A DNA stretch of 64,000 nucleotides from an uncultured Clostridia bacterium. GTDB taxonomy: Bacteria; Bacillota; DTU025; MWDF01. Below, in pieces: positions 57,635 to 60,581 of this stretch; the stretch's first letter is position 1, and each line of letters begins with the position of its first letter. Made by a program: the position numbers and the translations under genes. Under the pieces are notes generated by a model, which saw nothing but the letters and a program-made list of their open reading frames with translations, did no database searches and had not been told where the DNA came from. Where the stretch lies: NCBI GenBank assembly GCA_964577435.1, contig CAZNZD010000001.1, positions 7,247 to 71,246 on the forward strand, read 5' to 3'.

Positions 57635-58020
57635 ACCTAGATGGAAGTCTCTCTGAAAGATGAGCATCGTACTTTCCGGTAATGCATATAACGATGATGA
57701 CGAAATGAAGGGAGGTGCGAACATCCTCCTGTTTAGCTATTGTCCGGGATTTTGTCCGCACCTACCATGGCTTGATTCTAGCCGTCATTGACAGTGTTCT
57801 TGGCGCTCATATGCTTCTATACGATACAGGTGCCTATAAAAGATACAGTAAGGAATTATCGCGGTTATGCTGTCATACTTGAGCAAAGCTCAAATAACCT
57901 GATTGCCAGCAGTAGATACAAGGTTTTATAAAGAGAAGGGGTAAGGGGAACAGATAGTATCTGATATGTAGTGATCGAATTTATCACGTCAAACGCCAAT
58001 ACACTGCAGGAGGTGCTAGT

Positions 58021-59175
58021 TTGACTGGTTTTCTATATGCAGAGATCAATGTTATAGGTATCGTGCTGCTGTTGCTTTTCCTCAATAATATGAATAGAGG
58101 CGGCCATAAAAGGATACCGGTCGATCAGCATATATTCAATTCATGTATGATTATGAACATATTGATTTTCTTGTTCGACACCGGGATGTGGATGGTCGAC
58201 GGGAATCATCTTGCGATTTCGAGAACTGTAAACTATGTCGTGACCATGTTGTATTATATTTCTTATCCACTCATTTGCCTTCTATGGCTAATGTATACTG
58301 ACTATAAAATAAACGAAAGCAGGAATGGGCTGCTGAGACGCACCCGCCTCTATGTAATCCCGTGCGCAATAAGCACCGTTTTGAGCCTTTTAAGCCCTTT
58401 TACAGGTTGGCTGTTTATTATAGATGCTAATAACAACTATATGAGAGGGCAGTACTTCTGGGTCATGGCTTTTGTCGCGCTGCTCTATTTGGCAATCTCC
58501 TTTGGGATGTCGTTGAGGGATGTCCTTCTTAACGGTTGGGAAGAGAATAAGAACGTAAATATCCACTTGGTAATCTTCCCTATTGGTATCATTGCAGCTT
58601 CTGTCATACAAATCATGTTTTTTGGCGTTTCTATTATCTGGGTTTGTGCAATGATCGCATTTGCAAGCATTTATATAAATATTCAGAACGGCGAAATATC
58701 AACCGACCATCTAACAGGCCTGTATAACCGACGCCGGCTTGATGAGCATTTTCTAAGAAGAATGAAGTTGCGTAAAAAAGAGCACCTGTTTTTTGCGATT
58801 ATGATCGATTTGGATGACTTTAAGAAGATCAATGACGAACATGGCCACGCAGTCGGGGACAATGCTCTTATAGAGATGTCGGAGCTGCTTCGAAATGTTT
58901 GTAAGGGCAGCGATGATTTTATTGCCAGAATGGGGGGCGATGAGTTCGTCGTATTGGGAGAGCGGACTAAAACCGAGGAAATCATAAAATTGATGAACGA
59001 TATATCGTCCGCAGCTAAAGATAATAATAGCAGGCGCATGCTTGGTTATCTTCTGCAGCCCAGCATGGGTTATTCCGTATTTAAAAATGATGATACAAGA
59101 AATTCTTTCTTTGCGGCTGCAGACCAGGCAATGTACCGCAATAAACAAGAACGGAAATTGGCGCAGAGCAGATAG
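58021..59175 (+). CDS. membrane-anchored GGDEF-domain diguanylate cyclase
   Basis: TTG start 6 nt after AGGAGGTG. About 7 N-terminal TM helices, then RxxD I-site context and the GGDEF motif. AT-rich codon usage. Confidence 0.85.
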   Translation: MTGFLYAEINVIGIVLLLLFLNNMNRGGHKRIPVDQHIFNSCMIMNILIFLFDTGMWMVDGNHLAISRTVNYVVTMLYYISYPLICLLWLMYTDYKINESRNGLLRRTRLYVIPCAISTVLSLLSPFTGWLFIIDANNNYMRGQYFWVMAFVALLYLAISFGMSLRDVLLNGWEENKNVNIHLVIFPIGIIAASVIQIMFFGVSIIWVCAMIAFASIYINIQNGEISTDHLTGLYNRRRLDEHFLRRMKLRKKEHLFFAIMIDLDDFKKINDEHGHAVGDNALIEMSELLRNVCKGSDDFIARMGGDEFVVLGERTKTEEIIKLMNDISSAAKDNNSRRMLGYLLQPSMGYSVFKNDDTRNSFFAAADQAMYRNKQERKLAQSR

Positions 59176-59260
59176 TGCAATTACTTGACGGCGTGCTCTG
59201 AGAAACTGGAGGACATGCTTCACTAAATGTTCCAATGAGTTTAATAGGGGGGATTTTGTA

Positions 59261-59803
59261 ATGGGAAAAGCCACACAAGACCTTCGGAAGGAACACGAGG
59301 CAATTCTTTATGTTCTGCAGATAATAGACAAAATGATCGGCTCTAAAAGGCACGATGCTGAAACCGTGCTTCGTTATTACGGCGAGGTGGTCTATTTCCT
59401 CAAGATATTTGCGGATAAATGCCACCATGGCAAGGAAGAGAACTATCTGTTCAAAGAACTGGTTAATAAAGGAAGCGCTAATGAGGGTGGACCAGTCGGC
59501 TTAATGCTGCAAGAACATGCTCAAGGTAGAGACTACATTGCACAGATGGCTGAAAGCGTGGAAGATCAGGACATCAGTGGTTTTAACCGCGCTGCGATTC
59601 ATTACCGCGACCTGCTGCGCATACATATAGACAAGGAAAACAACGTGCTTTTCATGATGGCGGATAAAGTGCTTGACGAACAATCACAGAGCCTTATGTT
59701 TGAACAATTCGAGCAGTATGAAGAGGGTGTCATAGGATATGGTGTCCATGAGAAACTGCACGCCTCAATTGATGCATGGGCAGAAGCTTTTAACGTGAAA
59801 TGA
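59261..59803 (+). CDS. hemerythrin-like (HHE cation-binding domain) protein
   Basis: 180 aa with spaced His/Glu ligands (HEAI..., HHGKEE..., H..E) of the hemerythrin four-helix-bundle family. Confidence 0.75.
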   Translation: MGKATQDLRKEHEAILYVLQIIDKMIGSKRHDAETVLRYYGEVVYFLKIFADKCHHGKEENYLFKELVNKGSANEGGPVGLMLQEHAQGRDYIAQMAESVEDQDISGFNRAAIHYRDLLRIHIDKENNVLFMMADKVLDEQSQSLMFEQFEQYEEGVIGYGVHEKLHASIDAWAEAFNVK

Positions 59804-59831
59804 AATGTCTATAGATGACAAAGGAGGTTAA

Positions 59832-59984
59832 GATAAAACCTGTAAAAACGTTGTTTTCCCTGTAGGTGCATATGAACCGGAAATCGTCGATCCCGATGGT
59901 GGGATCGCGCCTGTTACTGCGTATGAAGATGTCCTTGATGATTGGCAATGCCCGATTTGCTCTTTAAGCAAGGATGGATTATGA
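59832..59984 (+). pseudogene. decayed rubredoxin gene (no start codon, first CxxC lost)
   Basis: Frame reads [50 protein letters not shown], against the rubredoxin consensus ...[44 protein letters not shown]. An AGGAGG RBS is intact at 59822, but a TAA lies two codons upstream and no ATG/GTG/TTG is present. Confidence 0.4.
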
Positions 59985-60581
59985 ATCTGTTGAAGAATAA
60001 TTGGAGGAAAATGAAACCCGGGTGCTTCGGTATTGATGATGTGGTGTCCCTCCGTTAACGATTCATCTGGCAATGAACACTGCATCAAGATCATCAGCCT
60101 TTTGCAATATTAGAACGCTAACATTGATTCAATGAGCGTCAACATTAGCGTTCTCTCGTCTTGTTAAAAGCCTTTATATAAGGCGTTTGAGATTTTATGC
60201 TTAGCGCTGTGACATTTGACCGTTGAACACCAGCGATTCCCACCGAAACGGCGCCATCCTCTTTACATGCGCTTTCGATTACTCGAAATGCCTTCATTCT
60301 CTCCTATGGTTTCATTTGCCGCAAGAATCATCTCATGCCCGCGCTTCCGGTTTATCCGGCCAGTTGCAGATGCCCACATCCAGCGCCCGTGGCTTGTCCA
60401 AATGAAAGTCTGCATAGATGCAGTACCAACAAGTTCTTTCTGCAGCACCGCCGCGCGCTGTGAAAACGGTGCAAGTCTGTTTCGGCCAGACATTGCCGCC
60501 CGAGTTGGGAGCGTTCAATGCCATATCCTCCCGTCGCCTCGAAGGCTTATCCATTATAATCGCTCCCTTCGAATAATGGCC

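Follow-up and report, generated by a model that had tools for sequence, protein, structure and literature searches.

Islets that adjoin tRNA genes and carry no mobility genes are hotspots of horizontal transfer between conserved core genes. Rubredoxin is an electron carrier for flavodiiron proteins and other diiron oxidoreductases in anaerobes. In Vibrio cholerae, Bhr-DGC is a fused bacterial hemerythrin-GGDEF diguanylate cyclase that is regulated by the redox state of its diiron site (PMC9388753). The metal ligands of the classical O2-carrier hemerythrins are five His, one Glu and one Asp (PMC9388753). Here we describe a locus that touches on each of these subjects: an islet of low guanine-plus-cytosine (GC) content beside a tRNA-Leu(UAA) gene in a 64,000-nt stretch of DNA (the window) from an uncultured Clostridia bacterium. 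We consider it likely that the islet holds a horizontally acquired mosaic cassette, set in a lineage-specific insertion of ∼6.7 kb in the short convergent spacer that separates tRNA-Leu(UAA) from three paralogous genes; its arrival and function are what we infer. The cassette appears to join two units, a gene for a seven-transmembrane (7TM) GGDEF cyclase and an HHE-plus-rubredoxin unit, to which the intact form adds a small cupin gene. The features concerned are the following.

57550-57634, plus strand: tRNA-Leu(UAA) (ARAGORN; Rfam tRNA, 60 bits)
57951-60104, plus strand: shared low-GC cassette, 42.7% GC (blastn, junction sequences)
58021-59175, plus strand: intact diguanylate cyclase gene, 384 aa, TTG start (PF00990, TIGR00254)
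59261-59803, plus strand: intact hemerythrin-like (HHE) gene, 180 aa (PF01814)
59822-60000, plus strand: rubredoxin pseudogene (three-frame translation; alignment with the intact 54-aa gene and same-species contigs)
60001-60104, plus strand: deletion scar, then conserved cassette tail (alignment; junction sequences)

The islet, 57635-60215, had a GC content of 42.5%, compared with a window mean of 54.8% (standard deviation 3.6%, windows of equal size), and was the lowest among all equal-size windows in the 64 kb. GC content at third codon positions (GC3) was 0.49 in the GGDEF gene and 0.475 in the hemerythrin gene against a mean of 0.68 (standard deviation 0.084; 44 long open reading frames (ORFs)). 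These values bear out the foreign composition that a preliminary description of this DNA had attributed to the islet. The same description reported a drop in GC content from roughly 58-60% past tRNA-Leu and a return to high GC beyond the islet. The drop is real, from 57.6% in the flank left of tRNA-Leu, but the content past 60215 is about 53%, not 58-60%.

To place the islet among relatives, species-representative genomes were scanned with the neighbouring LysA protein. This yielded six relatives with LysA proteins 76-95% identical (L001-L006; L numbers denote compared contigs and loci), all uncultured Clostridia or Bacillota metagenome-assembled genomes, several of them from digesters. LysA lay beside tRNA-Leu(UAA) in 6/6, and this conserved tRNA anchors the insertion site on its left. 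According to blastn, homology between the window and the two closest relatives, L001 and L002, ended at 57639, five bases past the tRNA; the ACCTA that follows the CCA is the sequence common to the window and these relatives up to that point. In L004-L006, homology ended at the tRNA 3' end, 57634. The fetched flanks of the six relatives encoded no cyclase, hemerythrin, rubredoxin, phosphoesterase, kinase or regulator of the kinds found in the window, and the three genes of the islet, far from being syntenic and intact, were absent at the locus in 6/6. Exact-sequence look-ups of the window phosphoesterase and cyclase matched no record.

The full extent of the insertion emerged from four contigs of the same species (L081-L084), found via a 97% identical hemerythrin. 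They stem from four samples (two ENA, two Logan) and carried the same junctions as the window, to which they were 98-98.5% identical. Past the window end, L081 and L082 encoded a response regulator (307 aa), three paralogous proteins of ∼150 aa, DUF362, DUF501, S1, DivIC and SLT. In L003 and L004 the distance from tRNA-Leu to the first of the three small paralogous genes was 97 nt and 46 nt, respectively; the gap held nothing but a terminator-like hairpin, and the paralogues were followed by DUF362, DUF501, S1, DivIC and SLT, as in L081 and L082. Because the same gene block follows tRNA-Leu in relatives and the regulator in L081 and L082, the lineage-specific insertion runs from 57640 to about 330 nt past the window end, roughly 6.7 kb. 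Its right anchor is the set of three tandem ∼150-aa paralogues (7576-9039 in L081; orthologues in L001 and L003-L005), which have signal-peptide-like N-termini and belong to no Pfam family.

The insertion has two parts, the low-GC part at 57640-60215 and a host-like part from 60216 onward (GC 53%, GC3 0.67-0.68). The compositional islet, first put at ∼2.5 kb, is thus one part of a larger insertion. It had also been expected that tRNA-Leu would be followed directly by the gene at 60582 in relatives; this proved wrong, since that gene and the two-component genes belong to the insertion and are absent there. Other relatives carried other cargo. At the same site, L001 (8687-9577) had a low-GC, homing-endonuclease-like HNH/DUF1801 gene and L005 (6050-9755) had 3.7 kb of TetR, AraC-like and membrane genes, while L006 (1918-4536) had 2.6 kb inserted between tRNA-Leu and LysA.

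The low-GC cassette itself recurs in other genomes. Positions 57951-60010 were about 87% identical at the nucleotide level to five metagenome contigs (L085-L089), which were 96-99.8% identical among themselves. The order in the intact cassette is 7TM-GGDEF (384 aa), hemerythrin-like (180 aa), rubredoxin (54 aa), a 19-codon ORF and Cupin_2 (115 aa); in L087 and L088, a second GGDEF gene lies upstream of it. The copies have a common right end, ...ATCAGCNTTTGCCA, at about 60104 of the window, past which there are four different sequences (window; L087; L088; L085 with L089). The L086 copy stops short of that right end, and at its left side keeps only the last ∼90 cyclase codons, preceded by unrelated high-GC DNA. 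A truncated (294-aa) cyclase in L088 turned out to be merely the start choice of the gene caller. The cassette had a GC content of 40-44% inside flanks of 60-70% in L085 and L086, and the flanks of the copies spanned 50-70% overall. A distant copy in L098 and L099 (cyclase 81% identical) comprised the cyclase and hemerythrin genes only and stood in yet another context. Its hemerythrin gene (7290-7835) had a 1-nt deletion at about codon 102, giving 131 + 48 aa; the deletion was identical in the two assemblies and represents a real pseudogene or else a long-read error common to both.

A 67% identical homologue of the cyclase occurred in a 41% GC genome and does not stand out there in composition, and the cyclase family is at home in low-GC Clostridia. 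The presence of the cassette in several unrelated higher-GC contexts renders horizontal transfer well supported, and the only economical reading of the compared sequences is that a low-GC cassette was transferred into several hosts of higher GC content. Overall, the earlier suggestion of foreign DNA next to the tRNA stands, both through the absence of the genes at this locus in six relatives and through the occurrence of the same cassette in unrelated flanks elsewhere.

Within the window, the cassette has decayed at its 3' end. We compared its rubredoxin gene with the intact 54-aa gene of L085, L087, L088 and L089. The ribosome-binding site (RBS) AGGAGG was preserved at 59822-59827, an upstream TAA lay at 59829-59831, and the codon aligned with the intact ATG was ACC (59838-59840). 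A 1-nt deletion in the A-run before the first cysteine knuckle and a 2-nt deletion right after it leave the codons of the first CxxC, TGT TTT CCC TGT, at 59852-59863 in another frame than the C-terminal half. A 1-nt insertion near 59975 produces a premature TGA (59982-59984) upstream of the ancestral TAA (59998-60000). The in-frame remnant, 59832-59984 from stop to stop, matched PF00301 positions 10-45 at 40.4 bits and was 71% identical over 35 aa to the intact cassette rubredoxin. A frame-joined reconstruction matched PF00301 positions 3-45 of 47 (1.5e-10, 41.3 bits) and NF045768 (3e-13).

All three indels were common to L081, L082 and L084, which come from other samples of the same species and are 98.5% identical overall; L083 also has this allele, although it stops at 59888 and does not reach the 3' insertion. 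Sequencing error was therefore rejected as the cause of the frameshifts, and the pseudogene is real and older than the divergence of the strains. The rubredoxin gene is dead in this lineage, having lost its start, suffered two deletions around the first CxxC and gained a 3' insertion. These findings agree with the gene decay noted in the islet before and, in most respects, with the description of the remnant itself: the start is lost and AGGAGG is kept, but the first CxxC, which had been thought lost, is only out of frame. At 59839-59876, 10/38 nt in the window differed from the four same-species contigs, which were identical to each other there, whereas the neighbouring genes had a synonymous divergence (dS) of 0.02-0.04 and the rest of the pseudogene differed at one site. 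In this 38-nt patch, the window allele was nearer to the intact rubredoxin gene than was the allele of the contigs. We also observed a 16-nt inverted repeat, 94% complementary, between 59631-59646 (hemerythrin DKENNV codons) and 59848-59863 (the out-of-frame CxxC codons), which could be due to chance or be the footprint of a template switch.

Downstream of the pseudogene, about 640 nt of the intact cassette, comprising the 19-codon ORF and the 115-aa cupin gene, were replaced by about 37 nt. The conserved tail resumes thereafter, with window 60072-60102 matching L088 3018-3048 in a blastn-short search. No cupin gene was found elsewhere in the window; the gene has been deleted in this lineage. 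In the intact cassette, the 19-codon ORF, MSVFCYQCQGTANNTDCKS, lies between the rubredoxin and cupin genes (1697-1791 in L085; same place in L086-L089). Its translation may be similar to the N-terminal end of hybrid cluster protein (Hcp), the ORF being too short for Pfam scoring. If the likeness is true, the ORF would be a remnant pointing to nitrosative-stress ancestry.

By contrast with the rubredoxin gene, the cyclase gene is intact and under purifying selection: its ratio of non-synonymous to synonymous divergence (dN/dS) was 0.13 with respect to L087. Its TTG start, read from the sequence, lies 5 nt past AGGAGGTG. Residues 228-378 matched PF00990 with an E value of 8e-35 (120 bits; cut-off 23.8), and TIGR00254 was matched at 119.5 bits. 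According to hydropathy analysis, the N-terminal part (residues 1-223) contains about seven hydrophobic or transmembrane segments. The open frame at 58021-59175 encodes the TTG-initiated membrane GGDEF protein that had been predicted. The active-site motif, RMGGDEFVVL, is intact, with GGDEF from residue 305. Five residues before GGDEF, at the inhibitory-site position, the sequence is KGSD instead of RxxD; the RxxD site is common in cyclases, though not obligatory. Full-length homologues were common in Clostridia, and a few of them matched PF16927, a 7TM histidine-kinase N-terminal family. The cyclase is predicted to make cyclic dimeric guanosine monophosphate (c-di-GMP) in response to a membrane signal.

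The hemerythrin-like gene is likewise intact and under purifying selection (dN/dS of 0.22 with respect to L087). Residues 5-134 of the product of 59261-59803 matched PF01814 with an E value of 8e-18 (65.6 bits; cut-off 25.3), which agrees with its initial assignment. H12, H55/H56, E59/E60, H86, H122 and E126 were invariant in 23 homologues, the window protein included. This sequence pattern fits H...HxxxE...H...HxxxE (four His and two Glu) with additional conserved H55, H163 and H167. The presumed metal ligands, H12, H56, E60, H86, H122 and E126, are all present. A C-terminal HEKLH motif was also invariant among the aligned homologues. The AlphaFold model of the protein was all helical, with six helices and a predicted local distance difference test score of 93.2. 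Sequence searches detected no solved structure. The nearest folds according to Foldseek were 3CAX (TM 0.69), 2P0N (TM 0.65) and the FBXL5 hemerythrin domain, with weak E values (9e-3 at best). In NCBIfam, similarity to YtfE was sub-threshold (E value of 8e-4, 19 bits against a cut-off of 254 bits).

The 180-aa family to which this protein belongs, for which about 2,300 homologues were found, was strongly conserved, at 66-88% identity across 22 sampled homologues, and the source labels of its members included Bacillota, Smithella, Bacteroidales and Burkholderiales. Two cluster representatives were hemerythrin-rubredoxin fusions. We counted the neighbours of the gene at 80 metagenome loci with relatives of the hemerythrin (L104-L183). 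Rubredoxin was encoded directly downstream, 43-50 nt away, at 7/80 loci, and a flavodiiron protein gene lay nearby at 17/80, adjoining (within about 90 nt) at about 11 of these. HHE plus rubredoxin is a self-contained unit that travels widely among anaerobes. The hemerythrin-like protein may be a diiron protein of the oxidative or nitrosative stress network, its usual redox partner being rubredoxin or a flavodiiron protein; with rubredoxin dead, it would here use another electron donor or work without one. At some family loci (L090-L097, L104-L183), the gene was flanked by insertion sequences or had a P-type ATPase/HMA pair as its neighbour, and in L090-L093 a hemerythrin-flavodiiron pair was surrounded by IS3, ISL3 and Mutator-type genes.

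Several explanations of the locus were weighed. The data leave scarcely any room for an assembly or binning chimera, or for an ancient vertical region lost from the relatives, even though every comparator is a metagenome assembly. The identical junctions in the four contigs from four samples exclude an assembly chimera. With respect to vertical descent, the dS between the window cassette and L087 (0.23-0.45) is as large as that between LysA and its counterpart in the sister species L001 (0.43); this similarity indicates that the acquisition was not very recent, and the composition of the cassette has still not converged on that of the host. However, L003 and L004 have empty sites of just 46-97 nt, with the terminator hairpin inside them, and in other organisms the cassette, at ∼42% GC, sits within flanks of 50-70%. 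More pertinent is the manner of arrival. The islet had been taken for an old integrated element, and a classical tRNA island, in which a tyrosine integrase inserted DNA into the tRNA-Leu 3' end and the integrase and attachment repeats were since lost, would explain why the DNA adjoins a tRNA, is of foreign composition, contains a decaying gene and is missing from relatives. Nevertheless, we judge such an island most improbable. No integrase, transposase or other mobility gene occurred among the called insertion genes up to the far junction in L081, and the stop-free fragments of 57635-58020 and 59985-60581, in all frames, gave no Pfam match and no integrase or transposase remnant. The tRNA, complete and identical in L081, has no repeat of its 3' end up to that junction: its last 25 nt matched at 15/25 at best, ungapped, and 10-mers of its 3' half did not recur save for one chance match inside the phosphoesterase gene. 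The absence of a direct repeat reported earlier therefore holds up to the actual end of the insertion. Elsewhere, copies of the cassette do not lie beside tRNAs, and relatives hold unrelated cargo without integrases at this very site. Carriage by a plasmid or phage was rejected, as there was no match to plasmid DNA and plasmid hemerythrins were ≤40% identical. So was viral carriage: no viral contig contained a hemerythrin relative, and the viral GGDEF relative was only 26% identical. Since mobility genes and repeats are missing, other copies lie away from tRNAs and nothing was found on plasmids or viruses, the site probably behaves as a recombination hotspot and not as an integrase target. The spacer between tRNA-Leu(UAA) and the three paralogues would then be a hotspot that takes up different cargo in different relatives, and recombination, not a site-specific integrase, is the most likely route by which the cassette arrived. 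Insertion sequences, common near family members elsewhere, may help to mobilise them.

The remaining alternative concerns function. The islet had been proposed to deliver an O2/NO-sensing c-di-GMP module, that is, a single redox, O2 or nitric oxide (NO) device in which the hemerythrin controls the membrane cyclase in trans and rubredoxin re-reduces the diiron site, as a split hemerythrin-GGDEF enzyme. Bhr-DGC provides a fused precedent with redox-dependent activity. In the window, L087/L088 and L098, despite different flanks, the two genes are neighbours with the same orientation and a gap of 85-87 nt, and a scan of the 85-nt gap in the window found no terminator-like site. We nevertheless think a single device unlikely. 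The cyclase and hemerythrin are encoded by two ORFs with separate RBSs, and among the 120 homologues listed for the two proteins, no polypeptide combined both domains. Every adjacency of the two is a copy of one cassette (at least 81% identical) and therefore reflects one evolutionary event. A GGDEF gene was found beside the hemerythrin relatives at 0/80 loci, where the neighbours were rubredoxin or flavodiiron genes, and cyclase homologues at 71% and 67% identity had no hemerythrin nearby. The parts also decay separately: rubredoxin is dead in the window, the hemerythrin is frameshifted next to an intact cyclase in L098/L099, and the cyclase is truncated in L086, where hemerythrin and rubredoxin are intact. 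In addition, the hemerythrin brings its own conserved upstream region, as, by inspection of the sequences, ∼60 nt upstream of its start appear homologous with and without the cyclase next door. Finally, its ligands appear to be HHE-type and not the classical five-His set of hemerythrin sensors. The cyclase and the hemerythrin-like protein are thus probably independent neighbours in their functions. We give equally low credence to a related scenario, in which the 180-aa HHE family is an uncharacterised, often transferred redox component of the O2/NO defence of anaerobes that was here recruited as a trans redox sensor of the 7TM cyclase. If true, this would be a split analogue of Bhr-DGC, tying oxidant exposure to c-di-GMP signalling in strict anaerobes.

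Some observations weigh against an acquired cassette of independently acting genes. Three diverged cassette lineages (dS up to 0.76) have kept the junction of the cyclase and hemerythrin genes, which could mean joint work. The mechanism of arrival is deduced from absence, and an integrase-borne element with erased integrase and repeats would look alike. The two parts of the insertion may have come together or separately, no intermediate genome having been found. Finally, because all relatives are metagenome-assembled, the absence of the genes holds for this locus and not for whole genomes.

The borders of the cassette and the host-like part of the insertion comprise the following further features.

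57640-57950, no strand: low-GC spacer from the tRNA to the shared cassette, 43.4% GC
57909-57971, plus strand: possible remnant, the last 21 codons of the upstream second GGDEF gene (AVDTRFYKEKG*GEQIVSDM*), low confidence
60112-60154 and 60170-60185, no strand: two hairpins just outside the cassette (inverted repeat; RNA fold)
60216-64000, minus strand: second, host-like-GC part of the insertion (Pfam, NCBIfam; absent at the locus in L001-L006; continues in L081/L082)
60333-60554, minus strand: 73-aa ORF, cysteine-containing (called as a gene in two same-species contigs)
60582-61895, minus strand: secreted metallophosphoesterase (Pfam, NCBIfam)
62047-63309, minus strand: GHKL sensor kinase (Pfam, NCBIfam)
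63306 onward, past the window end, minus strand: LytTR-type response regulator (Pfam, NCBIfam)

The spacer at 57640-57950 had no Pfam match in any frame. It contained one promoter-like site, at 57788-57815; the promoter scan returned three sites against 6.3 expected and is not significant. For the stretch from the tRNA to the cyclase gene, a riboswitch or another RNA was rejected, as Rfam matched the tRNA alone even at E ≤ 1. The possible remnant at 57909-57971 was 12/21 identical to the C-terminus of the upstream GGDEF protein of L087 (E value of 0.004 in tblastn with a 700-nt search space); the L087 ORF itself matched PF00990 at 2.5e-40. A decayed second GGDEF domain at 57709-57879 was considered and rejected: there was no Pfam GGDEF match, and the last 21 codons alone weakly resemble the L087 gene. 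At 57951-57972, a 22-nt exact match to L087/L088 (about 545-566 in L087) holds a 17-bp palindrome, ATCAGATAgTATCTGAT in L087, of which 7/8 arm positions pair in the window. Located about 50-70 nt upstream of the cyclase start, this palindrome could be an operator or merely the conserved end of the upstream GGDEF gene. On the other side of the cassette, the RNA fold of 60100-60200 had an energy of -25.6 kcal/mol (z -3.1), and the hairpins at 60112-60185 are probably terminators between convergent transcription units.

In the host-like part, the 73-aa ORF had no Pfam, NCBIfam or PADLOC match. An apparent truncation of the response regulator was rejected as an artefact of the ORF listing, the frame being open to the window end. 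A defence island was also rejected, with no PADLOC match at E ≤ 0.001 for the cyclase, hemerythrin, phosphoesterase, kinase, regulator or 73-aa ORF. The intergenic region between the phosphoesterase and kinase genes (61827-62026) differed densely from L081, by 12 substitutions and two 1-nt gaps. In L083 (62-1258), an IS110-family transposase gene lay beside LysA, where the window has a NAGPA-domain gene.

Elsewhere in the window, 42008-48381 is an array of clustered regularly interspaced short palindromic repeats (CRISPR), with 105 copies of the 29-nt repeat GCTTTCCCCGCAGGCGCGGGGATGAACCG and 104 spacers of 32-33 nt. This array accounts for a 62-65% GC block next to tRNA-Lys/tRNA-Met, and the ORFs at 33560-41979 upstream of it are presumably cas genes. 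The sole other long ORF of islet-like composition in the window (40767-41678; GC 47%, GC3 0.45) is just upstream of the array. Self-targeting was rejected, since none of the spacers of the array matches the islet. The spacer at 43379 matched L006 2232-2253, in the cargo near tRNA-Leu, at a borderline 21/22 nt.

The locus is a familiar kind of thing, an accessory cassette in a tRNA-flanked hotspot, and nothing points to a new system. It provides a well-bounded example of accessory-gene movement among uncultured Clostridia of anaerobic digesters, in which one small cassette can be traced through several genomes, keeping its donor-like composition and losing different genes in different hosts. 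The site appears to be a tRNA-flanked hotspot that works without an integrase. Moreover, it draws attention to an abundant, very conserved and uncharacterised hemerythrin-like family tied to rubredoxin and flavodiiron proteins, which may matter for the O2 and nitric oxide tolerance of anaerobes.

Compared with known systems, the locus shares with tRNA-adjacent hotspots its two conserved anchors, varied or missing cargo, atypical composition and lack of integrase and repeats. It differs from them in that its cargo is composite (42-43% and 53% GC), with a low-GC part traceable as a nearly identical cassette elsewhere. The intact cassette rubredoxin is a canonical protein of PF00301 and NF045768 (54 aa, CxxCG and CPxC), and the window remnant is clearly homologous to it; unlike a functional rubredoxin gene, the window copy has no start and has its two cysteine knuckles in different frames. 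The hemerythrin-like protein resembles the YtfE/RIC iron-centre repair proteins, 3CAX (PF0695), 2P0N (NMB1532) and FBXL5 in its PF01814 match, His/Glu pattern and all-helical bundle model; PF0695 and NMB1532 are themselves uncharacterised hemerythrin-like proteins. By contrast with YtfE/RIC-type HHE proteins, it has an extra conserved C-terminal HEKLH helix pair, and its YtfE score is far below the cut-off. Like Bhr-DGC, the locus encodes a GGDEF domain together with a hemerythrin-type diiron domain. Here, however, they reside in two genes, a 7TM sensor region belongs to the cyclase itself, the hemerythrin is HHE-type with a C-terminal extension, and the conserved partners of the HHE protein elsewhere are rubredoxin and the flavodiiron protein, not GGDEF.

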